From: Yuukianura sp. NJ FZ-2021
Lineage: Eukaryota
Reading direction: 5' to 3'
Length of the DNA: 64,000 bases
Assembly: GCA_046563655.1 (NCBI GenBank)
Contig: CM102283.1
Span: forward strand, 558,001-622,000
The translations under genes were made by a program, and so were the position numbers. Shown here in pieces: positions 1 through 62,678 of the stretch. The notes under the pieces were generated by a model. It did no database searches. It worked only from the letters and a program-made list of their open reading frames with translations, and was not told the DNA's origin. Position 1 is the stretch's first letter. Each line of letters opens with the position of its first letter.

Positions 1-1990
1 CCACGAGTTTTGGAGAAGCGCTAATTCCCTCCGAGGTCAACCTAAATCCAACAAAATCAACATTTTCCCGCATGAACTCACATTTTTCCCTCTTCAGAAA
101 AAAGTTGCGGTCCCTCATCCGCGACAGAATGAGGCGTAGGGTGTTGAGGTGGGTTGTCTCATCATGCCCCGTGCAGATGACGTCATCCATGTAAGCACCA
201 GCTTTTGGAATTCCAGTCAAGAGTCCATCCATGAACTCTTGGAAAATCGATGGTGACGATGAAATGCCCTGAGGAAGTACGTTGTACTGGTATAACCCCT
301 TGTGAGTGTTGACTACCAAGTACTTTCTGCAACTTTCGTCTACTGGGATTTGGTGGAAGGCGTCAGGGCCATCTAATTTTGTGAATTTCTGTCCACCAGA
401 AAGCAAGTTAAACAAATCCTCAGTACGAGCAATGGGATACTGGTTAATGTTCAGTTGGCAATTAACAGTGTTTTTGAAGTCCCCTGTAATTCTGACTTTA
501 CCGTTGGGCTTTAAAACGCAAACGAGAGGTGATGCCCAGTCAGAATGCTCGACTATTGTCAGTACTCCTTGACTCACCATTAGATCCAATTGTTCGTCGA
601 CCTTTGACCTGAGTGCGAACGGAATTGGACGAGCCTTGAGGAATCTGGGTTGTGCGTCTTCCTTCAGGACAATTTTTGCACGAAAATCCGTGACTGACCC
701 AGTTGGATTTTCAAAAACCTGAGAAAATTCAGTTAGCACACTTTCCAGGGTTAAATTTTTCATCATGTTACAATGAGACAAATTTTTTCCAATTTCAACC
801 CAATTTAGTTTTACCTTTCCCATTAAGTCACGACCAAGTAGGGAAGAACCAGTTGTCACTGGAAATTGGTGTGACACTTTTTGACCATGGTACGTGACTG
901 TCGTTGGTAACTCACCCTTTGGTCGAAACGTCACGTCAGGATATCCTTTGAAGACGAGGCTGGACTTTTTCAAAGTCGGAGATCCGAGACTGGCCCAAAA
1001 ATCCTCCGAGAGCAGACTGTGCTCACAACCTGTGTCTAATTCAAAGGAATGTGGAACACCATTGACAATTAGACTTACGCACAGTTCCTTACGTTTCCCA
1101 TAATGAACATGGTTGACAGACGAGATGTTTGAAACTTTCCCGTGTCCAGAATTGTCACGTTGGGCAGGGACTGACTTGCCCTTTGACCTGCAGTATTTTG
1201 CGTAGTGGCCCTTTTTCCCACACGAGTGACATTCTACGTCCTTCTTGTCACAGTCCTTGGCAGTCGAGTGACGATTGGATCCACAGTTCGGACAATTCTT
1301 CTTCTGATTTTGACTTTCCTGTGGAACATGATTAGGTTTCGGTTTAAACTTTTTACCGTTTCCTTTCCCTTTACGTTGAAATACTGCGTTGACTGTTTCC
1401 TCTTTTTGCTCTGTTTTCCCGTCTCGGATCAGCTGTTGTGATTTAATCGCAAGTTCGTGCGATTGAGCGAGAGAGAGTACGTCAGCCAGGGAAATATCAT
1501 CTTCCTTCGTGAACAGTTGTTTTTGTGCAGCAGCATTTCCTAAACCTAGAATGAACTGGTCACGGAGGCGAGTATCGAGACAACAAGTGAATTTGCATGT
1601 AGTTGCCAATTTTCGCAATTCGGCCAAAAATTCAGCAACCGACTCACCATGTTGCTGTACCCTTTTTCCAAACTTAAAACGTTCGGAAATTACCTTAGGA
1701 GACGGTTTGAAGTGCTTAGAGAGTGTATCGATTAGCACTTGCAGTGTTTTGGATGTAGGATCCTCCGGCGAAAGGAGATCCTTTAGGAGCGTGTACGTAC
1801 GCATCCCTAGAGACGAGCAGAAGACGGCCTTACATCTCGTGTCCTGTTCCTTTTCGTCGATACCGTTAGACAGGAGGAAAAATTTGAATAAGTCCGTCCA
1901 GTCGTCAAAGTCATCTTTGTCATGATCAAAGGACGGAACGGAGCCGATGACGTTAACGAACTGAGTCGTTTTAGAAGAGCCAGAAGCCAT
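1..1990 (-). CDS. Gag-Pol polyprotein of element A (partial)
   Basis: Hand translation from ATG 1990: MASGSSKTTQFVNVIGSVPSFD..., knuckle CHSCGKKGHYAKYC, protease FELDTGC, RT GAYMDDVIC in the same frame near 190. Absence from the ORF track fits a frame open to the window edge. Confidence 0.9.
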   Translation of the reverse strand, partial: MASGSSKTTQFVNVIGSVPSFDHDKDDFDDWTDLFKFFLLSNGIDEKEQDTRCKAVFCSSLGMRTYTLLKDLLSPEDPTSKTLQVLIDTLSKHFKPSPKVISERFKFGKRVQQHGESVAEFLAELRKLATTCKFTCCLDTRLRDQFILGLGNAAAQKQLFTKEDDISLADVLSLAQSHELAIKSQQLIRDGKTEQKEETVNAVFQRKGKGNGKKFKPKPNHVPQESQNQKKNCPNCGSNRHSTAKDCDKKDVECHSCGKKGHYAKYCRSKGKSVPAQRDNSGHGKVSNISSVNHVHYGKRKELCVSLIVNGVPHSFELDTGCEHSLLSEDFWASLGSPTLKKSSLVFKGYPDVTFRPKGELPTTVTYHGQKVSHQFPVTTGSSLLGRDLMGKVKLNWVEIGKNLSHCNMMKNLTLESVLTEFSQVFENPTGSVTDFRAKIVLKEDAQPRFLKARPIPFALRSKVDEQLDLMVSQGVLTIVEHSDWASPLVCVLKPNGKVRITGDFKNTVNCQLNINQYPIARTEDLFNLLSGGQKFTKLDGPDAFHQIPVDESCRKYLVVNTHKGLYQYNVLPQGISSSPSIFQEFMDGLLTGIPKAGAYMDDVICTGHDETTHLNTLRLILSRMRDRNFFLKREKCEFMRENVDFVGFRLTSEGISASPKLV

Positions 1991-2176
1991 GTTTAGCTGT
2001 TCCTCAGATTTAATCAGTTAGCACTTACAAAGATTATGAGGTAAGATTTTGATTGGGGAGAGGTCAATTCAAGTGATTGCAATTACCGTACCCAAAAAAC
2101 CGTGATTACCGTGAATCTGTTGTGTAGCTGTGCCTTCTTCCGATGACTGATTGATTGGTTAACTAGCCACGCCAAA

Positions 2177-2391
2177 TGTGGTGTATTTGGCAATTTAAAT
2201 AAATGATTATTTATTTAACTGAAAAACTTAATACTAAATTAAGTGTGGGTTGAGCGGCACTCAAACATTGAGTGCCAAAACTATGTGATTTTGAGAGAGT
2301 GGTCGTGACTTAAAAGTAACCGCCACTCTGGACACAAAACTTAAACTTACGGGGAAGTTGAGACTGCGCTGAAAAGCGCAAATACATTACA
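2177..2391 (-). repeat. 5' LTR of element A (about 215 bp)
   Basis: Plus strand starts TGTGGTGTATTTG and ends CAAATACATTACA; partner LTR is outside the window. Confidence 0.75.
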
Positions 2392-5312
2392 TTCGGAATT
2401 ACCATTTGGTCCCAGATTTTCATGACGGTACTTTTTCTATTCTCGGAACTAAAACAAGAGGTCGACTTGAGTACGATTTTCAAAACCGTGAGTATTTGTG
2501 TGCACTGCTTGGCCTCAGTGACACGCAAACTCAGGAACTTAAGAGCTTGACCGATAGTTTCCCATCACTTTTCTCCTCTCAGTTAGGCCAAACTGATTGG
2601 GTCAAGTGTGAGTTGACACCGTCTCCCGGACCTCCCATTTCCTCAAAACCCTATCCTGTGAGTCCTTTCAAACGCCAACTCATTTCAGACAACATTTCGG
2701 AAATGTTGAAAATGGGAGTCATTGAACCTTCTGATTCCGAGTGGGCTTCCCCTGTATATATGCACACCAAAGACAAAGGTCAGTCTTGGAGGTTTACTTT
2801 AGATTTGAGAAAAGTAAATGCTCGTCTTCCTCACGATCCCTTTCCAATTCCTAGATTAGATTATTTGTTCCACAACTTAGGTCAAGCTAAGTTTCTTTCG
2901 GTTATTGATCTTAAAAAGGGCTACTGGCAAGTAGCCATGGACCCAAACAGCGCCAAGTACACTGCCTTCATTTGTCATGAAGGAAAGTTTCAGTTTACTC
3001 GGATGCCTTTTGGTTTAAAGTCAGCCCCTTCTCTTTTTCAACGTCTTGTAAATAAAATTTTGGGTACAGCGCGAGGTCGCTTTGCTGACGGTTACATAGA
3101 CGACATCATCGTCTATTCAAGTTCTTGGAAAGAACATCTAGAACATCTCAAATACGTTTTTGAGAGATTGAGTTCTGCCGGGCTCACTGTAAATATGCAA
3201 AAATGCGAGTTTGGCAAAACTACTCTTAAGTACTTAGGTTACATTGTCTCTCCAAATGGAATTGAGAGAGATCCGGAAAAGATTTCTGCTGTTTCGGAGT
3301 TTCCCAGGCCGACGACGCCTAAACAAGTACGTCAATTTCTCGGTCTTTGTTCATGGTATCGGCAGTTTGTCGACAGGTTTTCGGAGCTGAGTGAGCCCTT
3401 GAACCGTTTATTGCACAAGGATGTTTCTTTTGTTTGGTCAGATGAGCAGGAGTCTGCCTTTTTAAAGCTCAGAGCAGCTATTTGTTCGGATAATTTGGTT
3501 TTGGCTTTCCCGGATTTCTCTAAAGAATTCATTATTCGGACGGACGCGTCACGAATTGGAGTATCCGCGGTTTTAGCACAGGAGGTTAACGGTTTTGAAC
3601 GTCCCATTGCTTTTGCGAGTCGATCTTTGAATAACGCTGAGAAAAATTACGGTTCAAGCGAAATTGAGTGTGTTGGCATTTTGTTTGCGTTAAAGAAATT
3701 TGAACATTACATTGACGGTCAACGATTTCGCCTTGAGACCGATAACAAAGCTTTGGTTTGGTTGGACAAAATGAAAGATGTCAACAGTAAGTTTACACGG
3801 TGGGCACTTAGGATTCAGGACTTTCAGCCCATTATAACGCATTGTCCCGGTAAACTTAACGTTGTCGCAGACGCACTGTCAAGAGCTCCCGTGGGAGAAA
3901 GCGAGGATTGTGAAGATCACAGAGAAAAACTTAATTTTCCATTAAATTGTTCTTCACCCGCCATTTTTCTTTCACTTACAAGCGAAATTTCATTGGATAA
4001 GCTCAAAGAAGAGCAAAGTAAAGACTTAGAAGTCCAAGCGCTGCTAACGGACATTGGTAAAGACTTCGTAGTGCACGACGGGGTCCTTTATCGCTTAGGA
4101 AAGTACGCTGGAAAGCTCCCTTTCATTCCAAGTTCTTTACGTACTCAAGTTTTGAGCTATTTTCATGATAGACCAGAGTCAGGTCACATGGGTTTTCGCA
4201 AAACGCTCTATCGTCTCCTAAGGCGCGTCTTTTGGTTCGGTATGCACGAAGACATTTATAAGTTTGTTCAATCTTGCGACATTTGTCAGCGTACCAAGAA
4301 TCCTACTTCCAAACCGGTCGGTGAACTGCAAAGCGTTCAAACTCGCGGTCCTTGGGACATGCTCGCATTGGATTTAGTTGGGCCCCTTACAAAAACGCAG
4401 CGTCAAAATACTTTCTTGCTTGTGGTCACTGATCATTTTACTAAATGGGTAGAGTTATTCCCAATCAGAGAAGCTACCACTTCTCAGATCATTAAAAAAG
4501 TCGAGCAGGAAATTTTTTGTCGTTTCGGACGTCCCAGAGCACTATTAAGCGATAACGGTTCCCAATTTACTTCCGATCTTTTCAAAAAGCTTTGCAAAAC
4601 ATGGAACGTCAAATTAAAGTACACTTCGACTTATCATCCGCAGGCAAATATCACGGAGCGCGTAAATCGTAATGTCATCGCTATTCTTCGCGCCTATGTC
4701 GCGCGTAAGCACTCGAAGTGGGACGAAAATCTTCCGGAGGTTGCCATGGCTCTGCGCACTGCGATTTCTGATTCTACCGGTTTTAGTCCCTCCATGCTTA
4801 ATTTTGGTCGTGAATTGTCAACTCCTTTTGATCTTGCGCTTGACGCCTCTGAAAACGACGATTTTGCTGAGTGGACGCAGTACCAACTCACTTTGATTGA
4901 GCGTCTTTCGAAAGTTTACCGTTTAGCGCGAGAGAATTTAGAAAAAGCTCAAGCGTCACAAGCCAAACATTATAATAAGCATCGGCGTTCAGATGCGTTT
5001 CAAGTTGGCGATTTGGTACTTTTGCGTACGCACGAGAAGTCGGACAAAGCGAAAGGCTACATGAAGAAATTTGCGTTTAAGTGGGAAGGCCCTTATATGA
5101 TTTCTGAGAAGGTCACTGATTTAGTTTACGGCCTGAGTTTCTGCGATTCCGACGAATCGGCAGGTCGTCATAATATCGTAAACCTGAAACGATACTTTTC
5201 GAGACCTTCAGCGATCATTTCAGCGCCTGTACCGCCTTCTAAAGTCCCAAAAACTAAGCCTGAGCCTATCGTTAGCAATTACAATTTGCGCAGTCGTAAT
5301 ACAGTTCACTGA
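2392..5312 (+). CDS. Pol of element B (protease tail, RT, RNase H, integrase), interrupted at its 5' end by element A
   Basis: YIDD (RT), TDAS/ETDNK/ADALSR (RNase H), HHCC, DLVGP, SDNG, YHPQAN-TER and WEGPY (integrase). Confidence 0.95.
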
Positions 5313-5340: not shown

Positions 5341-5931
5341 ATGGCTTCTCAACAACGTTCAGTCCAAGCAAAATTACATTTTCCTCAATGGGAAGGCGAA
5401 AAAGTTAGGGATTTCATTCTCCGACTGATTACGAAGTTGAAAAGCCTGCTGAATCGACAACCATCGGACAAAGAAATCGTTCACTACGCGAAAAGGAACC
5501 TAAATCCTGCTATCCTAGTCGCTATTCCTACTCGTTGGCACAAAACCGGACTTACTACGAGCAAATTAATGCACTTGGACTCGGTTCTGCGCGAGAAGTA
5601 TGCCCCGAGCATTTATTTTTGGAGTCGCCCACGATCTCCTTCTCCTCCGTCACCGGAAGCACTTCCAGACCTTGTAGTGACAGTCCAGAGTCGTCCAGTT
5701 CCTCCTAACGTACCGCAAAGGGCTCCTCCGCCACCGCCACCACCTCCTCCTCCTCCTCCAGTACCTCCAAGGGCTCCTCCGCCGCCTCCTCCTCCGCCTC
5801 CAGCGCAGCCGGCACCTCGTTGTTTTCGCTGCCGCCGATACGGCCATTTTGCCGGAACCTGTACTGTCCGAAGACAGAACAGATTCAAAACGAACAAGAA
5901 ATTCAATCCCCGTTATGCTCGACAGCCTTAA
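5341..5931 (+). CDS. Extra ORF of element B: Gag-like (capsid C-terminal-like, polyproline, CX2CX4HX4C knuckle), 196 aa
   Basis: QWEGEKVRDFILRL...DKEIVHYAKRNLNPAI; CFRCRRYGHFAGTC; preceded by CACTGAT, a pyrimidine tract and CAG ending at 5339. Confidence 0.75.
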   Translation: MASQQRSVQAKLHFPQWEGEKVRDFILRLITKLKSLLNRQPSDKEIVHYAKRNLNPAILVAIPTRWHKTGLTTSKLMHLDSVLREKYAPSIYFWSRPRSPSPPSPEALPDLVVTVQSRPVPPNVPQRAPPPPPPPPPPPPVPPRAPPPPPPPPPAQPAPRCFRCRRYGHFAGTCTVRRQNRFKTNKKFNPRYARQP

Positions 5932-6826: not shown

Positions 6827-7439
6827 GGGTGGCCAAACCTTGAGGATAGCGTGGGTCAAATCGTAGGTTATAAATACAAGTGGAAACTCTGTAAAAGTAA
6901 CGAATTACAAAGGAACCTATGTGATCAATCTTCTCGGTGTTTGCTTTACGTATTGATGGAATGTTACTACATTCCTAACCTAACCAGGCGCAACAATTCG
7001 AATTCCGGTGAATTCATGAATGTACATCTTGTCCAGAAGGGGATAATGCTGTTAAAAAACAACGAGAAAAACGAAGATGAAAGCCAAAATCCGCGGAAAA
7101 AGTTTCAAACTAAGACAAGAATTTAACTTAATATAAGAAAAAATCTAGATAACCTAACCTACCGGAATCTATTTGTAATTAGAAAGTCGAATTTACTTAC
7201 AGCCATTGTAGGTATTAACGAGTAGGTATATATATTAACAAACGAGATGAGAGTTAAACTCAAAGTTTAGAACAGAAAAACACAATTCAAAAAGTCGAAA
7301 TTAGTTGGTTCCAAATATGATCAAATAACAGCTGATTCAATCAAATTTCAGACAATTGGGGGGTGGAACAGATTCAGTTTTTGCAAAATTTTAATCCTTT
7401 TAAAAAAATAAAAAAGCAAAAATTGAAGGAAACTACTTT

Positions 7440-22093: not shown

Positions 22094-23537
22094 CAGTGAG
22101 AGGCACGAAAACCTGCACACCCCAAATTTGTTGCCTTGGTTACAATTGAAACCATGGAGGGAAATTCTGTTCATCAACAACCTGAGTTCAGAATTCTAAA
22201 TTTAAAAAAACTGAAAAATTTGTATTTTCGTTTCCACTATCTCCACTGCGTTCAAGTTTTAGAAATGGCGCAATACACAAGCCAGCAAAGGGGTCAAATG
22301 GCTGCCCTTTATCACGAACAAGGGAGTTATAGGAAAGCGCGGGAGGTCTTCGCTGGAATTCATCCTAACTTGCCAATTCCTGCCGTCAACACTGTCAAAT
22401 TGGCCGTTCAGAAGAATGCAAAGCTAGGAAATCAGGAAAACCGAAAATACAAAAGAGCAAAACCTGCAACGAACGATGGAATCTCAGCGGCAGTTGTAGC
22501 GTTTTTGGATGCTAATCCACATTCAAGTTTGCGGGACTTGAGCAACCATGCTGGAATTTCGAAGCGATCAATTAAGCGAATTCTGAAAGTTCAGAAGTTC
22601 CATCCCTACAAAATGAAATTTCTTCAAACGCTAACAAACGATGACCCAAAACACCGAATTGAGTTTTGTGAGCAGTTGATTGACCTGTGCGACGCAGACC
22701 CACATTTAAGTTCACGAATTTGCTTTAGCGACGAAGCAACTTTTTTTTTGAACGGAAGATTTAATCACCAAAATTTCAGGTTCGAAAATTACCGAAAAAT
22801 TATTTAACCTTCAATGGTACCATGCTGCAGCCACTCAAAAGCAGGAAAACATCACTTCCTTTTAGATATTGGTCTCAAGTCAACCCTCACTGGATGTCAG
22901 ATTGTAAGTCGCAAAATGCCCCAAAAGTAAACGTGTGGGCTGGTGTCCTAGGAGACAGAATTGTCGGCCCCTTCTTCTTTGAAGGTAATATCAACGGGCA
23001 AGGATATTTGGAAATGCTTCAAGATGAAATTGGGCCGGCATTGGAGCAAATTGCTGGAGACGATGAGATTTACTTTCAGCAAGACGGTGCTCCAGCGCAT
23101 TGGCTGAAAGATGTACGAGCCTATTTAAACGATACATTTCCTGGAAGATGGATTGGTAGGGATGGACCAATTCCATGGCCTGCTAGGTCTCCTGACCTTT
23201 CACCTTTGGATTTTTGCATCTGGGGTATTATCAAACACCAAGTCTTTCTGGTACGTAGCCCTACAATTCAAGACTTGCAACAACGAATACGAGATACTTT
23301 CGCTGCCATCACTCCAGATACACTTCGAAACGCTCGCCGAGCATTCTATGATCGCTTGGAGTACTGCATCGTTGCTGAAGGGAAGCACTTTGAACATGAA
23401 ATCTAGTTAAATCTTCGAATTTATACTTAGACACAGGATTATTGTTAGGTTGTTTGTGCAACAGTTTTCCCCCCAGATTTGGCAAAATAAACAAAATAAT
23501 TACTATGGAGGTGTGCAGGTTTTCGTGCCTCTCACTG
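22094..23537 (+). mobile_element. Full-length Tc1/mariner superfamily transposon, DD41D (rosa/VS) type
   Basis: Perfect 28-bp TIR CAGTGAGAGGCACGAAAACCTGCACACC with TA flanks. Confidence 0.95.
22265..23406 (+). CDS. DD41D transposase, 2 exons (22265-22779, 22866-23406)
   Basis: CFSDEA, FQQDGAPAH, WPARSPDLSPLDF; 41 residues between the 2nd and 3rd Asp; an 86-nt GT-AG intron restores NFR-YW. Confidence 0.9.
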
Positions 23538-38305: not shown

Positions 38306-39320
38306 ATGAGTTCCTCGAAAACCACTTCAAGAACTGCGTCAATTGAAGAGAAGGTGGAAAACTATGAGGAGGATTTCTCAGGCCATTTCGATCTGATCAA
38401 ACTGAACGGCCACTTGCGCCTTTGTCTCAAGTCAAACACTGATGAGGATGCCGTCGACAGTGATGCGTGTACTACCGTCGACGTTTCCATGGACGAATAT
38501 ATTGAAATCTTTCATCAGCTGTACAAGTGAGTTATGCTTTGTAATAGTTGTGCCATTTAGCAATGCAGTGCTTTGTCATCGGGATTTAATGGTTGTAAAT
38601 TTCGATACTTGCAGGTTCTTCTGCATGTTGGGAACTGTTTTTGGCTTTGTTGCATCTGACGTTAAGGCCAAAGTGGAGATTCTATCGGACTATCGGAAAG
38701 GACCAAATGGACATCAATATGAATTTGTTGGGAAAATGATCATTTATGAGAGGGAGTCCGGGTACTTGAAAGATAATAGAGATGGAAACGCCTCCAGAAC
38801 GTTTCTTCGCCTTCACAGAGCATTACGTAAGTAACAGCGACCAGCACATATCGGGGAGTCGCCCCCAATGAGTACATCTTCGATTACCAGTTCTTAGTTC
38901 TTATCATTTTTTTTTTCAATTTATTAGTATTTGTATCTGAATTTCTTCGGAAAACCTTGACATTGGCAGAAGAGGACGGAACAGGTCAGATAGCTCGTGA
39001 GACGTACAAGGAAACATTGGCGAAACACCATGCTTGGCTCATCCAAACGGGAGCACTGATGGCCATGTACACTTTACCCACGAAGAAAGACTTGTTCAAA
39101 CAGGTACAATAGCTAAATTCAATAGATTCCAATTTTCGTGTTTATTTTTTGGTGGATAATTGTTAACACTGTTTTCTTGACGAACCAGCTCGGAGTGGAG
39201 AAACATTTTGAGCCACATGAAGTGAGTGAACAGCTCAACGAGGGTGTCCGAATTACGAAACAAATTTACGACGCTTGTCAAAAGCTTTACAAGAACGAGA
39301 ACTTGCTCAACCTTCCGTAA
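38306..39320 (+). CDS. CPTP: Ceramide-1-phosphate transfer protein (GLTP fold), 4 exons
   Basis: FFCMLGTVFGFVASDVKAKVEIL, ASRTFLRLHRAL, LAKHHAWLI, C-terminal LLNLP. Confidence 0.88.
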
Positions 39321-42258: not shown

Positions 42259-45200
42259 TGTTAGGCTCGGTCGTAGTCGACTAACCGTTGACTACCGGAA
42301 CACTGAATGTGGAAGGACGTGATCGAAAAAGGGTTAATTTCTGGATAATTTATTCTCTATTTAATTAATTGCTAAGAGGACAATACTTTTCACTCCTATT
42401 CTCTCCTAGCTCTAAAACCTTACTTCTTATTATTACTAAAAAACAAAGGAACCACGCCACACATACTCACACAGGACGCGGACGACTTTTTGAATTCCCA
42501 CTCAAAATTATGTCTCAAATTGACAAGAGCAGAAAACTAACTTGAACCTATTGTTCTAACACTGCTAAAACATATTTCTTAACCTAATGGTCGGTGGCCC
42601 TAATTTATCGTCTAATTTTTACCTTTAAAATAAAAACTCTAGAACGAAAATTTAACCTAGCCTAATCTAACTTCTAACTTATTGTCATCCTAACATTTCT
42701 CCCACCTTTTCTTTAAGAGGAAACTATTAAAGAAAAAACTAAAACAAGAGGAAACTCTAAACGGATTGCACAAAATGCACCATTAACTTAACCTAAAAGT
42801 TCCACGTTCCATAACGCTGAGGTTTCTTGACGAGACGTCCTTTCCGAGTGGTTACAGTTTCGCCATCGGTTGTTTCCGGCTCATCATCTTCTAAGATCAC
42901 TTTCGCCCGGTTCTTGACCTCTTCTACAATCTCCTTCCTCATGGTCTTGAAACGCTCTTCCCTGACGGACATCTCCAAAGGATAAAGGCGTTGAAGAGGG
43001 CGAGTGAGGGTTGTACAGCTATAGTCTCCGGGGACTTTGGGTTTACACGCAATCCTGACTTTGGCTACTCGTACTTTACCATCGGCTCCTGTTCCGAGTT
43101 CCACAATCTTCCCGAGAGGCCATTGGAAGCGCTTTCGGTCATCGTAGCCAATCAAAACGACATCTCCCACTTTCGGCTCAACTGACGGTTTCTCGTTCCC
43201 CTTCTGGACCAGCATCGCCAAATACTCTTTTCGGAATCGGGCTCGGAGGGCCGCCTTAAGCTCTTGCAACTTCTTGAAGGCACCTCTCAACTGTGATGCT
43301 CCGATTTCGTCACCTTCTGGAAATACAGCGATTGGAAGGTCCCTCATAAACATTCTTGGGGTAAGGGGAATGAGGTCTCCGCCATCCTCGGTTAGCGTTG
43401 TCAATGGGCGATCGTTGATCGTTCCGGACACCGTTGCTAGGCAAGTGAGGAGCTCCTCCTGGGTCAACTTGGCGCTTCCTAGCATTCTTCGGAGCAACTC
43501 CTTTGTTGAGCGAACCATCCTTTCCCACCAACCTCCCCACCAAGGCGCTGCGGGTGGATTGAAAGTCCACTTGATTTCTTTGGCTTCAAATTCTCGTTCC
43601 AAAGTTTTCCAGTCCAGCAGTTTCATGACGTTCCGGGTGCCCACGAAATTTGTCCCATTGTCGCTGTATAGGCGGTTGGGCCGGCCGATCACACTCACAA
43701 AACGTTCTAACGAAGAAATGAACGCTTCCCAGGAGAGTGAAGTGACGAGATCCAAATGGATTCCTCTATAAACGGCACAAGTGTAGAGGACAATCCATGC
43801 CTTGCTTCCTCCCTTCAAAATCACCGGTCCTGCTAAGTCGACTCCAGTGGTTTGGAAGGCGAAAACCGTTTCAACGCGGTCCTTTGGGAGTGGAGCAGCT
43901 TCTGGTTGTAGACTATGTCCTTTATGACGCTTGCACACTACACACCGCTGTAGTACGGCTCCAACAGTTTTGCGACCCTGTGGAAGCCAATACTTCTCTC
44001 GTAACTTCCCAAGGACGAATTGTACCCCTCCATGACCACTGCTCCTATGAACATGATAAACGAGAAGATGTACCATGGGATCTTCTTTTGGTAGCAAGAT
44101 CGGGCTTCGGAACTGATCTGTGTCTGTCTTGTATGTGAGCCGTGATTTCACCCGCAACAGCCCATCTTCACCAAGAAACACATCCAGATTTTTCAATTTC
44201 GGAGTTTGGCCAAAATACCGCCTTTGAATATCTCTGAGGATATCCGCTTCTGCTGCCAACAACTCCTTCTTCCCAATGCTTCCACTCTTGATTCGGTCAG
44301 TTTCAGACTTAACCTTGGAGTTGTACAGGAATCTTTTGACCCAGGCTGCTACTCGTACATTCTTCAAATAAGACGAAAACCTTGGTTCTACTGAGTCAGT
44401 TTGGACGGCAACGAGAGTAGTTTTCTTCTTTTCAGCGTTTACCAGTTGCTCGTCCACAACAGCTTCTGATTTGGGCCAGTCACATTCCTCTTGGTAAAGC
44501 CACTCCGGTCCCTCCCACCATTTTGACTGGCGGAGCTCCTTGTGTGGACATCCTCTTGAAGGGAGATCCGCCGGGTTCAAAATCCCAGGGATATGTCGCC
44601 AACTTGAGCCTCCTGTTAACCTGACGATCTCACTAACCCGGTTCCCAACGAAAGTGCCCCAGTTTCCTTCTTTTTGAATCCAGGACAGAGCGGTCATTGA
44701 GTCGGTCCAAAAGTGACTTACGACATTCTTCGTGTCCAACGCTGTAGCTGTAGCTTCCCACAGTCGAGCACCAACGAGACACCCAAGCAGTTCCAATCGG
44801 GGAATGGTGACTCGGTTCTTCTTCTTTTTGTCGAGTGGAGCTACACGGGCTTTAGATGCTAGTAATTGAACCGTAATCAGACCATCTCCATGAGCCACTC
44901 TCACAAATACTGCACCAGCATACGCCAACTGACTTGCATCAGTAAAAACATGGAGTTGAATGCGGGCGGGGCCTGATGACAATCCAACGGCGTGTCTTGG
45001 TATTCGGATGTTCTCTAATTCACTGATCTCCGAGTACCATTTTAAGAATGCTTCTCTTCGGTCATTGTCCCATTGGTCATCCCATCCCAAATCGGTTGCC
45101 CAAGCTTCCTGTAGCATCAACTTCGGTTGTAGACGTGACGGGCTTGCGTATCCAATGGGCTCAAACACTTGGGACACCAGCGACAGAACGACCCTCTTCG

Positions 45201-48200
45201 TTATAACTTCTGACTCAAAATCCTTGGGCACTTGGCAATACAGGGTATCGTTATTCTTGTCCCAATGTAACCCCAAAACGGTCGTGACACTTTGGTGAAT
45301 GGGAGTTTGATCCACTTGTGACTCCCATTGTCTCAAATCCATCTTGGCCTCACTCAGGATGTCAATGGCTTCGATTTTGAACTTGCGATACTCTTCTTCG
45401 TGGTTGAAAGACGTCACACAGTTGTCCACGTAGAGTGACCGCCTGAGTAGTTCCGCAGTACACTTCCATTGCTCCTTGACCTGACTCAAATGAAGGTCCA
45501 GAATCGCCGCCAAAATGAAAGGACTACACGTCAGTCCAAATACCACTCTGCAATGTTGGTATGGCTGTAGCTCCTTCTTGTCACCATTGGCGCGCCACCA
45601 GTAAAACTTCTGGTACTTACGGTCTTCTGGTGCTACGGAGATCATCTGAAAGGCTTTCCTGATGTCGGAGATGACTCCTATCTTCTTTTCTCTGAACCGG
45701 ATGAGCATGGCAGGGATCAGTTCCAGCCAGTTTGGACCTTTTTCCAAACACTGGTTGAGTGACGGGCGTTTTGTCATACGGCACGAAGCGTCAAAGACTG
45801 GTCGCACCGGGGTGGTCACACTTTCCTTGAAAACGGGGCGATGAGGTAAGTAGTGTCCAGACATGGGGTCAACTTGCACTGGAATTTCGATAATCCCCTC
45901 TTCCTCCCACCCTTTGAAGACTGCATCATAGGTGTTAAACTTGCCTTGTCTTTCCAACTTTGCAGTGGCAGAGTCCAGCCTTTTAACACTCACAGACTCG
46001 TTTGTAGGGAGGTGACACTTTACATCTGCATTCACCCATGGGAGACCAACAACATACCTTCCCGTTGTTTCACGGGTCACTTCTTTCTGGAAGGTCTCCT
46101 TTAGCTTCCGATCGCTGTCCAGTTCAGTAGACTTTTGTACGGGATCCCGAATGCCTAACAAGTCCAAATCCCAAAGTTGACAGACGGATCCTGTGAGGTA
46201 ACTGTGAATAACAGTTTCACAAGCACTAGTTTCAGCCTTGAACACAGGGCCACACAACATCCAACCAAAGAGAGACTGAACCGCGTAGACTCCATCTCTG
46301 AGATGAATCCTCTTGCCGGTCATCAACTGCTCTCGATAGTCACTCCCAATCAAAATGTCTATGTCTTGTCGGTGTTGGGTATTACCACCGTGGTCTTCAA
46401 TTGTGATGCCATTCCTTTCCAGTTCTTTGCTCCACTTCCCCAATTGAGCACGCGGCGGAATACCTCCAATCACTGGTCTCTCCCTCAGCAACAGTTTGAC
46501 CTTTGACCCAGCAGCGTCCAGAACGGTGAGTTCGTGTTTGTAGAAGAGGGTCCCTGGAGACACTTTACCGTCAATCATTACGGTCTTGACTCGCTCCTCT
46601 CCCACCGGCTTACTGGACACACTGTGGACGACGTGACTGGTCACATAACTGCTTTGGCTGCCCTCGTCAAAAAGCAATCGAGCCAGCAGCTTAATTCCAC
46701 TTTTACCCACAACCCACACTAGCATTGTTTTGAGCAGAACGTCACCCCCACACTGTACTCCACTATTAACAGCAACAGTTTCAGTGGAACTTTGAGTGAC
46801 TTCTTTTACCTCACGAGTTCCATTGTTACCAGGCGGTTTGTCATGGGCTTGCTTTAAAGCGTGAAGGTCAGGGCACATGAAATGGTAGTGCTTCTTGGAA
46901 CACAGTGAGCAACGAACCGGAGCCTTACACGCCTTGGCCATGTGACCTTTAAAGCAAATGTAGCACCCTTTGGAGTCATTCACTTTCTTTCGTTTTTCTT
47001 CGAGTGACATGTTGAGGGCCTTGAAACACTCATGACTCTGGTGATTGGTTTTAGCACAGAAGATACACTTTTCCTTGCCTTTGCCTTCGAACAGTCCCGC
47101 CGAAGTGGAAACGTCTTCTTGACCAAGTTCCTTCTCCGGTCGTCGGTGTCTTTGATGCTTTTGAGTAGAAGGGCCCTCTAATTTGGTCAACTTCCGCTGT
47201 TCCTGGTTCTCGACTTCGACGCGCAGAAAATCGAGTAGGTACGAAAGTTCCGTCATAACTGGGTCTTCTTGGCTTCCATCCTTCAAATAATTCGGGTGAC
47301 GTTGCCACACAATCATCAGTTCTTCCGGAAGGCATGACTCCACCATTGGATAGAGGAAATCAGCTGCCTGCTCTGTGGTTACGCCCAGCGATGCTAAAGC
47401 CCTTGTGTGCGAATCCAGTGCATAGTAAAGGTTTGACACGGCCTCTGCAGACTTGCCACACGGACTCACCAACTTCAGTAGTTCTTTGATGTAATAGTGT
47501 TTCAGCAGCTTTTCTTTCCCGAAGCGTGTTTTCAACTTTTCGATCACCTTCGGGTAGTTTTCCGCTGATTGTGGATACGCATCCAAGACTTCCCGAGCCC
47601 TTGATCCTGCCACTGTCGACTGATACAGGTACTGGAACTTATCAGTGGGGTCAAGGGACTCATCCTCGTGAATCTTGCGAAACTGCGCCCACCACCCTAG
47701 CCACTCCTTCAGATCCCCATTGAACGTTTTGAGTTGGATCTTCGGGAGCTTGAACTTTCTTGTGGTCGTGGCTGAAGATTGGATTGATGCTGCGTCATCC
47801 TGACTGCTTACCTCCTCACTTCGTTTGTCGAGGTAAGAGTTGATGCTGCCTTGACTGACAAGGATCTTTTGGAGGTATTCTTCCACTTGAATCTGCTCAC
47901 CCTCCAACGTCTCGTCATCCGCTTCACTATCCAGCAGACCATCCAGCACTTCACGATCCAAACGTTGAATGTCATGATGAAGTTGATCCAGCCGGGTGAA
48001 CTTCGCTTGAAGGATGGCTTTGCTAACCTCGTCCTTGTCTAGTTCTCGATCCACTTCATTCGTGATCTTCGTGATCGTGCTCCGAACCACCTTTCTTTCT
48101 TTCTTGACTCGATCCATTTATCAGCTGTTAGAAGATTCAAAAGAACGGAAAGAATCCGATTAATTCGATTCAAATTAAGCTTAAGCTGGAACGTTTTCAC

Positions 48201-58798: not shown

Positions 58799-60208
58799 AT
58801 GTGGTACTACTTGGAACAGCCAGGTCACTTAGTTGACCTCGTGACTTTTTACGTTCGTGGCGTAGGAAACAAGAATGAGTCGAAACTGATTCCATCAGAT
58901 GCCACTGAAGACTGGATTTGGGTCTACGAAAAGTTACGCGGAACGAGTCAAACATACTGTCTCTCTGTTCTAGCTTAACCCCTGAACTCCGCAACCCACT
59001 GACACTGTTCTACATTATTCTAAGAGCACTGGACTCCATTGGTAAGGTCAAACAAAAAAGGCTTAAAATTTGGGTTAACCTAACCTAATCTTAACCCTGT
59101 GGGGTTGCAGAGGATGATACGAAGCGATCAGTTGAAGATAAAAAGCCAGAACTTTTACAATTTTACAAACATCTTGATCAACATGGACACAAATTTAGTG
59201 GATGTGAGAATTTTACCTTAACTTAGACTTACTTACGTTTTTTTAACAAAATTTTTCATCTTTACAGATGGATCCACCCAGGAGGAAGTTGACCTCCTTG
59301 AAAATTTTGACCGGGTCATCAACTGTTTTCTGCAAATGGATCCAAAGTATCAGCAAATCATACGAACTGTTGCAGCAGAAATGGGCATTGGCATGGCCAA
59401 GTATATAGACAAGGAAATTGTAACTTTTTGCCAATGGACGGAATACAGTCATTATGCTGCAGGTCTCGTCGGTCAGGGTCTGTGTCAGTTCAGCGTCGCT
59501 GCAGGGATTTGCTCATTTCCTGATTTTTCAACTGACGTGATTAATGACAATACGGCGGTGCAAATCAAAAACGACGTGGAGTTAAATCAAACTGTACCGC
59601 CCAAAATCCTTCGACTTTTTGACTCCATTGGCATCTTCTTGGACAAGCTTAGCATTATACGGGACATTGTTGAGGATCTGACGCAGTCTCCACCGCGCGT
59701 CTTCTGGCCCAAAGCTGTTTGGGCAAAATATGTTGAGCATGTGCTTATTGTAACGAACGACGCAAGTCCGTCGAATCCAGACGAAGTGGAAATCCAACAA
59801 CTAAAACGACTGGCTTGTCTTAACGAACTTATTACAAATGGAGTTAAGCATGTGATTGATTTGATTGATGCATTAGCCATGTGCAAGTGCGACACAGATC
59901 AAACATTGTACAATACAACTGGGTTCTTGGGTGTTATGACCTTTGCATCGTACTGTCGCTGTTACAACAATGACCAAGTATTTCGTACTACTTTCAAACT
60001 TTCAAAGGGGGAGACTTTGCAAATCCGAAAATTGTGCAAAAATTACTCCGGAATTTTGAAATTACTTATTCAGTATTCCAAAGAACTGAAGAGGAAGGCA
60101 CGCGGAGTTGTGAAAAACAATCCAGTGGATCCTAGCGCAACGGAACTAATGACATTTATGGACTATGTTATTGATAAGTGCAGACGCCATGATGTGAAAC
60201 CTTCTTAA
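58799..60208 (+). CDS. Divergent squalene-synthase-like (head-to-head isoprenoid synthase) gene, 3 exons (58799-59041, 59111-59203, 59268-60208), with a 1-nt frameshift near 58976
   Basis: FYIILRALDSIEDD, MGIGMA, YSHYAAGLVG, IIRDIVED, FWPKAVWAKY, CLNELITN and CYNNDQVF are colinear with FDFT1; upstream in-frame ATG at 58712. Confidence 0.9.
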
Positions 60209-60947: not shown

Positions 60948-62678
60948 ATGCGACTGATCTTTGTGGTTGCCTTGCTATTTTTGGCATCTGTTAAAGCTCA
61001 GACGTCAACTTTTGAAAAAATTGACGCTCTGGAAAAGGCGTTGATCGCAAGGGGATTTCCGAGTAGAAATTTTGTGACACAGACGGACTATGAGTACATC
61101 TTCCTCAACGAGCCATGGCAACTCAAACCACCAGCAACACATCCGCTGGCCTTTGTTCTTCCGAGAAACGAACGTGATGTCATGGCAACAGTATCGTGGG
61201 CAGCAAAACTCGGACTTCGAATTGTGCCAAAGGGAGGTGGACATTCATTTGGAAAGTATTCATATGGAGACGACAATTCCGTTGTTCTGGATTTGCGCTT
61301 GCTCAACTTCGTGGAGGTAAATTCAAAGTCTCACACGGCGTCGGTGGGGCCTGGACTTTTGGTGGGACAGCTCGGATGGCGTTTGTGGGAAGCAGCAAAA
61401 GTCATGACTCCGACACCATTTTGTCCCACCGTTGGAATAGGAGGTGAGGAATTCAATATTTTATTGTTTAGATTTACTTGCAACGTTTTATCTTGAACTT
61501 TTCGATGTACGACATTTGTTTTTATTGAAAAAAAAATTTGAGGCAATTTCTGTTTTTTTTTCAACTTTTTTTCTCTCAAATTGAAAAATCTAATATTGTA
61601 AAAATATTTCCTTTGCATAATAAAGTTTAATTGTTACATTTTTTAAGGGAGTGCACTTGGAGGAGGTCTTGGAAACTTTGCTGGAACGTATGGCCTGACC
61701 CTGGACAACATTGTGGAGCTACACGTTGTTAACGCATTGGGTCAAATGCTGGTGGTCAACTCAAGGTCAAACAGTGACCTGTTCTGGGCCATGCGTGGAG
61801 GAGGTCAGTCGCTGGGCATCGTCACGAAATACGTGTTTCGAACCTACCCCGCTCCTGAAGCCGTTTTCGAAGGAATTTTGAACTACAACATGACCGATTT
61901 CCCCAAGGTTGGAATGGCTTTTCAAAATCTCCAAGCAGCACAGACTTCACCCAGTGACTTCACGGCGGAATTACGTGTTGGAAACTCCACAAACTTTCGA
62001 GTCAGATTCACCGATGTGACTGGCACAGATCGGAATTTTGAAAAACTTCGAAAACTTTTTCCGCCAACTTCCGTTGTTACTAAAATTTCGCTTCCCTTTC
62101 CCGACTTCCTTTTTTATCAAGCCAAAACGCTTTCAAATGAATTGCTGCGAAACGACTCTCTATTGACCGTTCCATCAGATCTGGGGAAACTTTCACGCTT
62201 TTCTAGCCTGCCTGTCTACCAATTTCTCAAAAACTTCTACGTTCAAAAACCTGTGGGGATTTTTCCTTGGTTCCTGCTTGGAGCTTTACTTGAAACGATG
62301 CCCAACAATACTGCGGTGTGGTTCCCCGGTTATGGAGGCGCTGTGAGATCTGTGCAAATCAATGACACTGCTTTTGTGCATAGAGGACCGACATTGTATC
62401 TGGCTGCGGCGAATTACGAGGTCACTGACCCGTCTGATGAACAACAAAACCAAGTTGGCCAAACTTTCGTTGAAAATTTTTATGACCTTGGACTTCGAAT
62501 TTTCAACCACACCGAGTCGTATCAAAACTACATCGACCCGGAAATGCCCGACTACTTGGCTCGCTACTACGGCAGCAACTTGGACCAACTTGTTCAAGTT
62601 AAAGCAAAGTACGACCCAGGAAATTTTTTCAACAATCCACAATCTATTCCTGTCAAACTCAACCAACCAATAATTTAA
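60948..62678 (+). CDS. Secreted berberine-bridge-enzyme-like FAD oxidoreductase, 2 exons (60948-61443, 61648-62678)
   Basis: Signal peptide, KGGGHSF, CPTVGIGG, DLFWAMRGGG, YQNYID...YYGSNLDQLVQVKAKYDPGNFF. Confidence 0.92.

Follow-up and report, generated by a model that had tools for sequence, protein, structure and literature searches.

A probable null allele in a small, very divergent clade of squalene-synthase-like genes

Does the squalene-synthase-like gene in a 64,000-nucleotide stretch of the Yuukianura sp. NJ FZ-2021 assembly (contig CM102283.1, positions 558,001 to 622,000; the whole stretch is hereafter called the window) encode a working enzyme with a remodelled active site, or is it a broken copy of one? 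To our knowledge, arthropods are the textbook case of sterol auxotrophs devoid of squalene synthase (SQS), and an annotation made from the letters of the window alone, the sequence-only reading, regarded the gene as unexpected and as an intact, neofunctionalised soluble enzyme yielding a product other than squalene. The window indeed contains a real SQS_PSY gene with introns, one that belongs to a small, very divergent clade of that family. However, this copy is interrupted by a one-base frameshift that the sequence-only reading had overlooked, and we consider it, with a probability of about 0.6, to be a null allele or a young pseudogene of a lineage-specific SQS-like gene.

The lesion lies in the first of three exons (Table 1). 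The frame of the ATG reads ...EKLRGTSQTY CLSVLA and then meets a TAA at 58976–58978, such that translation comprises 59 codons and ends before the first Asp-rich motif; the homologous continuation behind the flap, SLCSSLTPELRNPLTLFYIILRALDSI, sits in a different frame. Exon 1 of two related metagenomic loci, L001 and L002, served as tblastn queries. That of L001, itself a single unbroken frame, matches the window with its residues 9–59 at 58805–58960 and with residues 60–85 at 58960–59037 in another frame, and since the two frames abut at 58960, one base is missing from exon 1 of the window. Because the frame is broken, the SQTY flap and the first Asp motif cannot be translated from the window sequence as one protein, and the uninterrupted frame encoding both Asp-rich motifs that is expected of a squalene synthase is absent. 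Reading the sequence and its frames by eye, we found no in-frame ATG ahead of the first Asp motif in the downstream frame, in which the first Met comes after exon 2, and no usable donor/acceptor pair through which splicing could rescue the frame; the pyrimidine-rich AG at 58971–72 was considered as an acceptor and rejected, since it gives no open frame with any upstream GT.

Parts of the window occur in five public runs from two studies, none of which is recorded as RNA. Four of these (X1, X2 and X3, which share one sample, and X4 from the second study) were compared as Logan contigs, which drop rare variants and cannot demonstrate absence. X1 contains just 0.48 of the sampled words of the window, so that none of the compared runs need come from the source animal. 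The sole contigs spanning the frameshift site in X1 and X3 have one base more than the window, a C behind 58960 (144.8/144.8 and 164.5/164.5 in depth, respectively), and with this C restored the model is open for 425 codons and the flap-to-helix spacing equals that of canonical SQS. In X2, by contrast, 0/6.85 of the depth at 58960 has the extra base, an X2 contig covering 58799–59018 with seven other letters being without it. Contigs of X1 and X4 also differ from the window at codons 238 (CAG for GAC) and 241 (AAC for AGC), and consequently read FLQKLN where the window reads FLDKLS, whereas X2 carries the window letters at 59642–59652. Since the X2 contig is also without the base, the gap is not an assembly slip, and since X2 matches the window at both sites, the frameshift together with the D and S represents a real haplotype or a close copy. 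An intact, more canonical version of the gene also exists in public read sets.

X2 covers exons only. One of its contigs aligns from exactly 59268, the start of exon 3, with six unaligned letters before it, and one skips the GT..AG intron of the neighbouring gene at 61442–61645, although none of the X2 contigs among the matches listed joins SQS-like exons across introns. From the exon-only coverage and the skipped intron we infer that X2 is RNA-derived, in which case the window haplotype is probably transcribed.

These observations bear on the proposal that the window copy is a working, neofunctionalised soluble enzyme producing a head-to-head terpene other than squalene, the frameshift being either an error or bypassed. 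Such a view could draw on the downstream frame, which is open for 366 codons, on the retention of both Asp motifs and the catalytic Tyr, on the apparent transcription of the locus in X2, on the changes in the T/N of FLQKTN and in the JK loop, which fall at positions reported to convert SQS to a peplusol synthase (PMC12219392), and on the lycopane-type and other unusual terpenes that springtails are reported to bear (PMC11321324). It is nonetheless unlikely: the frameshift is found in two independent data sets, the window and the X2 contig, neither an alternative start ahead of the first Asp motif nor a plausible intron circumvents it, and the D and S at the Q212 and N215 equivalents are derived and private to the broken haplotype. 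The FLDKLS replacement, the change on which the sequence-only reading had laid most stress, is therefore a property of that haplotype, the other contigs reading FLQKLN, rather than of the gene.

The interpretation of the window copy as a null allele or young pseudogene is itself opposed by several points. X2 is taken as RNA from its coverage pattern, and the run is recorded as 'DNA?'; the DNA contigs over the site in X1 and X3 are all intact, and most individuals may carry a working gene, the break being confined to a single haplotype; and alleles and close paralogues are indistinguishable from contigs, which drop rare variants. The frameshift aside, there are 0 stops in 425 codons, and any decay must accordingly be recent. 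The exonic differences listed divide into about 9 synonymous and 8 non-synonymous ones, which is fewer replacements than the neutral expectation and hints at past purifying selection; this is a rough variant count, the clade members being, at 33–50% identity, too diverged for a meaningful estimate of synonymous divergence. Finally, the biochemical interpretation developed below is built on motifs, and the product of the L002 gene could still be squalene.

The affiliation of the gene with the squalene synthase family is clear. Exon 3 (312 aa) matches the Pfam profile PF00494 (SQS_PSY) with 43.7 bits (cut-off 26, E 3.5e-11) and is thus a member, although the three short exon pieces alone gave no Pfam match. 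In the PDB, 10 distinct chains were matched at E ≤0.001, all of them squalene synthases or a putative farnesyltransferase, with human SQS as the best match (E 4e-37, in two stretches), and from the ESM Atlas exon 3 retrieved only generic SQS_PSY clusters. The NCBIfam squalene-synthase equivalog TIGR01559 has a cut-off of 286.75 bits, below which exon 3, the only part of the window gene scored, falls with 176.7 bits. The metagenomic proteins P0001 (248.3 bits) and P0008 (180.7) and the L001 part (157.7) also stay below it, whereas the canonical and equally partial P0003 reaches 355, P0004 424.3 and the Elysia protein 461.8.

A word-index protein search yielded 7 proteins at E ≤0.001 among 675 candidates, and an exhaustive HMMER search 699 proteins, 336 of them at ≤1e-10 and 13 at ≤1e-30. 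The top relatives are the metagenome proteins P0001 (44% identity), P0002 (52%) and P0008 (36%), and a scan of metagenome contigs recovered seven loci, of which L001, L002 and L003 are the genes of P0002, P0001 and P0008, respectively, and L004–L007 are canonical SQS. The window gene and the three contigs L001, L002 and L003 form a clade of four with mutual identities of 33–50%, supported by SH-aLRT values of 98 and 100 in quick trees of 88 and 50 rows, respectively, and by 92/75 in the careful tree. The 88-row tree comprised the four clade models, P0003–P0060 of at least 300 aa, every fifth of P0275–P0386 of at least 300 aa, the named rows and P0014, shorter rows being excluded from the trees; the 50-row set was chosen by hand from these 88, with each group represented. 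The gene architecture is in line with this clade: an intron occupies the site of window intron 2 in all four members, in L002 (72 nt) at the identical position and phase, and the site of intron 1, inside the DS(T)I(V)EDD motif just ahead of EDD, is common to the window, L001 and L002.

We compared the clade with 83 canonical rows at 72 alignment columns, each at least 90% conserved in the latter; residue numbers follow the row of Elysia, which has Y171, D219, D223 and F288 at the human numbers (PMC10378455). The conserved state is kept at 45 of 71 columns in the window, 37 of 55 in L001, 47 of 57 in L002 and 30 of 54 in L003. Every clade member present has lost eight of the columns (F187, E193, M207, C289, I291, P292, Q293 and A296), and Y171, D223, R228, P232 and W236 are kept in all four members. 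Like eukaryotic SQS (FDFT1/ERG9; TIGR01559, PF00494), with which it shares the fold family, the window gene retains, at the sequence level and with the frameshift ignored, both DxxED motifs, the equivalents of Tyr171, Arg218, Asp219, Asp223 and Arg228, and the CLNELITN and CYNN segments; Asp219 and Asp223 are reported to be essential for SQS (PMC10378455). It departs from eukaryotic SQS in the frameshift, in SRSF replaced by SQTY, in Q212D, N215S and the change of VKIRK to FKLSK, in the replacement of F288, C289, I291, P292 and Q293, in two insertions and in having no anchor.

Several of these departures are common to the clade. The FCAIPQVMA segment is lost throughout, TTGFLGVMT standing in its place in the window, and the JK loop VKIRK, the proposed NADPH site of SQS at residues 314–318 (PMC10378455), has become FKLSK in the window, while L002 has VKISH and both L001 and L003 have VRIPK. 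The elements ascribed to the second half-reaction, namely F288 with the FCAIPQVMA segment and the JK-loop VKIRK, are hence absent from the window. The losses common to the clade sit in the part that serves the second step, while first-step residues persist, as would be expected if the second half-reaction had changed at the base of the clade. The changes confined to the window are fewer. Eight window-private losses were counted, five of them in exon 1, where the other rows lacked residues, which leaves three that are truly private (Q212D, F286Y and V314F). Canonical FLQKTNIIRDYLED stands against FLDKLSIIRDIVED in the window, and Q212 and N215 are conserved at a fraction of 1.0 in the 83 canonical rows; the N215S change of the window is matched only by an H at that site in L003. 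At the flap (residues 51–54), the window has SQTY, L001 has GRTF and L002 has kept SRSF, as it has F288, Q212 and N215.

The C-terminus of the window gene is hydrophilic, and the highest 19-residue Kyte–Doolittle mean is 1.37 and internal, with no hydrophobic segment or membrane anchor at either end. Opisthokont SQS carries a C-terminal membrane helix, which the window gene lacks, and some squalene-synthase-like enzymes of Botryococcus have no membrane anchor. The sequence-only reading was accurate in its inventory of features: the two spliceosomal introns (GT..AG, 69 and 64 nt), the Asp-rich motifs DSIEDD, divided by intron 1, and DIVED, the Tyr of YSHY, the insertion before the second Asp motif, which at 59516–59617 exceeds that of the nearest relatives by about 11 residues, the missing C-terminal transmembrane helix and the altered segments SQTY, FLDKLS, TTGFLGVMT and KLSKG are all present as described.

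Decay extends beyond the window. L001 carries an in-frame TAG (5606–5608) at the conserved aromatic residue before the FCAIPQ-equivalent segment, and L003 (P0008), although its frame is open, has IIQG for IIRD, losing the R218 and D219 equivalents, and YAHC for YCHY, and has lost residues reported to be essential for SQS activity. Disabling changes are thus found in three of the four clade members, with a different lesion in each, and only L002 looks intact. Because three of four members are compromised by different lesions, the SQS-like gene appears to be dispensable in several lineages, and the window-specific changes are better understood as decay than as design.

The intact member raises the question of whether the family could be the plain squalene synthase of its lineage, serving sterol or hopanoid synthesis, with the motif changes being tolerated drift and the window copy a null allele of it. 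L002 retains SRSF, Q212, N215 and F288 and lies 1.6 kb upstream of a squalene-hopene-cyclase-like open reading frame (ORF) on the same strand; in addition, squalene and cholesterol are reported from nearly all springtails examined, and Folsomia candida has an SQS hit (PMC11321324). We regard this explanation as rather unlikely, given that P292, Q293 and the JK-loop Arg are gone in all clade members present, that all scored members fall below the squalene-synthase equivalog cut-off, that lesions in three of four members would be odd for an essential enzyme, and that the cyclase-like ORF of L002, which has five QW motifs, carries DVDT where DxDD is expected. This ORF has no Met near its start, which suggests an upstream exon. 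Within the 64-kb window, tblastn searches with SQS, the BBE-like protein described below and the L002 cyclase found neither a second SQS-like copy nor a cyclase.

The sequence-only reading had proposed a phylogeny as a check of the gene's affinities, and the one built here places the clade with protist-type rather than animal SQS. The canonical proteins closest to the clade are P0003, P0004 and P0009, the closest named relatives of which are Arcella intermedia (Amoebozoa; 58% identical to P0009) and EukProt protist transcripts. The careful tree joins the clade to the long-branch protein P0014 and makes the two sister to this Arcella-like group (ultrafast bootstrap, UFBoot, 87; SH-aLRT 92), in which P0003, P0004, P0009 and P0286 are the nearest canonical relatives, and the named animals and fungi group elsewhere, leaving the clade outside the opisthokont group. 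A tree in which the clade is forced to group with six metazoan rows is worse by 33.5 log-likelihood units and has a p value of 0.018 in the approximately unbiased test (p-AU), the tested group having been named after the tree was seen and long branches being involved. Independently of the tree and in agreement with it, the spacer between D223 and R228 has 4 residues in all named opisthokont rows (among 37 rows with this length) and 6 residues ending in PPR in the window, L001, L003, Arcella and kinetoplastids (35 rows); that of L002 has 7 residues (16 rows). Neither the metazoan grouping nor the opisthokont-type spacer that mark membership in the animal FDFT1 lineage is found in the window clade.

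The Arcella-like SQS and the window gene are also alike in LLENFD[RK]VI, in the two-residue longer spacer ending in PPR and in having no C-terminal anchor, but the former keep all canonical motifs and pass the equivalog cut-off (355–424 bits). P0004 and P0009 carry a hydrophobic N-terminal extension, which is missing from the window gene, and their anchor topology, as judged from sequence, seems to differ from that of animal and fungal SQS. Taken together, the clade is probably protist-derived rather than descended from animal FDFT1, and its position is best understood as the outcome of an old transfer to an animal lineage from a eukaryote outside the opisthokonts, for which the evidence is suggestive only.

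With such relatives, the sequence might, rather than being a resident animal gene, be contamination or have been inserted very recently from a protist or fungus, as the protist-type character of the nearest canonical relatives (A. intermedia being 58% identical to P0009) and the agreement of the trees might seem to imply. This is very improbable. The gene sits within 64 kb of contiguous sequence that also carries BEL/Pao and Gypsy elements, its exons have a GC content of 42% and a third-position GC content (GC3) of 43%, compared with 42–46% in neighbouring ORFs, and its introns are AT-rich, as is the intron of the neighbouring gene. The two intron positions are, moreover, common to clade members just 33–50% identical. 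Contigs from other runs extend from the gene into the flanking spacer, those of X4, from the second study, spanning its 3' end, and further contigs cover the spacer and the next gene. As to the earlier claims on the genomic setting, that of a divergent SQS homologue in a eukaryotic, probably arthropod genome is borne out by the introns and by GC and GC3 values like those of the neighbours, whereas that of 'arthropod neighbours' stands as a lead only, drawn from the Pao element, whose nearest Atlas clusters come mostly from arthropods.

The wider neighbourhood (Table 1) comprises mobile elements and a few cellular genes, RING and F-box ORFs among them. The next gene downstream, on the same strand as the SQS-like gene, encodes an intact BBE-like FAD-linked oxidase, the closest named relatives of which are found in sciarid flies and Folsomia candida (32–35% identity), followed by glomeromycete fungi; it is a candidate for a laterally acquired gene of the oligosaccharide-oxidase type. 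We considered this oxidase as a pathway partner of the SQS-like gene and rejected it because of its signal peptide and its absence from L001 and L002. The L001 contig also bears thaumatin-like (231–920, minus strand) and subtilase-like (6894–7232, minus strand) ORFs. Over the 4.6 kb between 58300 and 62900, at least 222 variant contigs are present in X1, with identities from at least 99% down to below 90%, and runs of one sample disagree at some sites, e.g. 59103 and 59107; the many variants suggest either that the sample was pooled or is highly polymorphic, or that there are extra copies, above all across the BBE-like gene.

Table 1. Features of the SQS-like gene, of its neighbourhood in the window and of the L002 gene pair.
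Sequence	Feature	Position	Strand	Remarks
Window	SQS-like gene, whole	58799–60208	+	three exons, two GT..AG introns
Window	Exon 1	58799–59041	+	ATG, N-terminal helix region, SQTY flap variant; frameshift-interrupted
Window	Frameshift site	58958–58960	+	one base missing; ATG frame, tblastn, variant contigs
Window	Exon 1, 3' end		+	LFYIILRALDSI plus first base of the Glu codon of DSIEDD
Window	Intron 1	59042–59110	+	69 nt, GT59042..AG59110; splits DSI from EDD
Window	Exon 2	59111–59203	+	EDDTKRSVEDKKPELLQFYKHLDQHGHKFSG; phase-1 end
Window	Intron 2	59204–59267	+	64 nt, GT59204..AG59267
Window	Exon 3	59268–60208	+	313 codons plus TAA; SQS_PSY domain core
Window	YSHY (exon 3)	59444–59455	+	
Window	Clade insertion before second Asp motif (exon 3)	59516–59617	+	
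Window	Second Asp motif segment (exon 3)	59636–59677	+	FLDKLSIIRDIVED, including DIVED
Window	SPPRVFWPK (exon 3)	59687–59713	+	
Window	Second insertion (exon 3)	59744–59809	+	
Window	TTGFLGVMT (exon 3)	59915–59941	+	
Window	KLSKG (exon 3)	59996–60010	+	
Window	BBE-like FAD-linked oxidase	60948–62678	+	intact, 509 aa; PF01565 and PF08031; intron 61442–61645; N-terminal signal peptide
Window	BEL/Pao polyprotein ORF	42793–48117	-	1774 uninterrupted codons; apparently young element
Window	ORF with glycolipid-transfer-protein (GLTP) domain	38406–39112	+	E 4e-13; probably one exon of a host gene
Window	Tc1/mariner-like transposase remnants	22100–23406	+	
Window	Gypsy-type pol ORF	2373–5312	+	reverse transcriptase, RNase H, integrase
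Window	Further reverse transcriptase fragment at window edge	2–2017	-	
L002	SQS-like gene	19–1438		
L002	Squalene-hopene-cyclase-like ORF	3049–5172	+	708 codons; PF13243 3e-106, PF13249 6e-81

How an intact member of the clade might work can be gauged from SQS duplicates with altered products. The peplusol synthase of Euphorbia (EpSS-L1), an SQS duplicate that makes a linear triterpene alcohol, is reported to keep both Asp motifs and to depart from its SQS sister in the T/N of FLQKTN and in a conserved basic residue of the JK loop, changes that its authors link to the loss of the NADPH step (PMC12219392). These are also sites of change in the window and its clade. However, EpSS-L1 is a plant enzyme of proven activity with about 72% identity to its SQS sister (PMC12219392), whereas the members of the clade, known from sequence, are 30–40% identical to any canonical SQS, and the window copy is broken. 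The SSL-1, SSL-2 and SSL-3 enzymes and the lycopaoctaene synthase of Botryococcus, SQS paralogues reported to split or redirect the half-reactions or to take geranylgeranyl diphosphate, provide a precedent for head-to-head terpenes other than squalene (PMC4823828). These algal enzymes show no specific relationship to the clade in our trees, in which no Botryococcus row was knowingly included.

We propose that the intact gene would encode a soluble class-I isoprenoid synthase that keeps the first half-reaction, i.e. the condensation of two prenyl diphosphates to a presqualene-type cyclopropyl diphosphate, and in which the NADPH-dependent second half-reaction would be altered through the clade-wide loss of the F/C-A-I-P-Q segment and of the JK-loop arginine. 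Such an enzyme would be a soluble head-to-head prenyl-diphosphate condensing enzyme with a modified second step, and because second-step elements are lost, intact members probably arrive at their product by a way other than the canonical reductive route. In the window copy, the loss of one base in exon 1 just after the flap motif has broken this gene, the same haplotype has replaced the equivalents of Gln212 and Asn215 (FLQK.N to FLDKLS), and the broken copy is probably still transcribed. The earlier notion of a neofunctionalised enzyme accordingly finds no support for the window copy, which is frameshifted, owes its FLDKLS to a private haplotype and has two of its three relatives disabled, and survives at the level of the clade only, with an intact allele or an L002-type gene as the proper object of study. 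For expression work this entails a caution, as the assembly copy is frameshifted and its most striking motif change is tied to the broken haplotype.

An SQS-like gene has already been reported from springtails (PMC11321324), and the premise that such a gene is unexpected is weakened by the chemistry reported there. Springtail cuticles are described as containing squalene, cholesterol and traces of diploptene, and springtails also as carrying hopanoids, lycopane-type and other unusual higher terpenes; squalene and cholesterol were found in nearly all species examined, a Folsomia candida BLAST hit has 34.6% identity to human SQS, and a putative hopene cyclase is mentioned (PMC11321324). The gene evidence offered so far for springtail terpene chemistry consists of BLAST hits only (PMC11321324). 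Our literature search found no paper on a divergent SQS-like clade in springtails, PMC13638087 covering microbial-type terpene synthases only, nor any that describes this separate clade, the loss of its second-step elements, its affinity to protists or its repeated inactivation.

Collectively, these observations invite a broader scenario, which we put forward tentatively, as possible rather than probable: a soil-arthropod lineage whose forebears had lost SQS would have regained an SQS-type gene from a protist, which then acquired introns and became a soluble, NADPH-independent head-to-head prenyl-diphosphate synthase, the window copy being a fresh knockout, in one haplotype, of this dispensable gene of secondary metabolism. 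If resident in a springtail genome, the clade would be a concrete candidate for the squalene and terpene chemistry of these animals, and, if the scenario is true, it would also be a case of gene transfer from a eukaryote to an animal, in which the synthase may feed a lineage-specific terpenoid chemistry, either that of the unusual terpenes of the cuticle or, to judge by the gene pair of L002, a hopene-cyclase-like enzyme.

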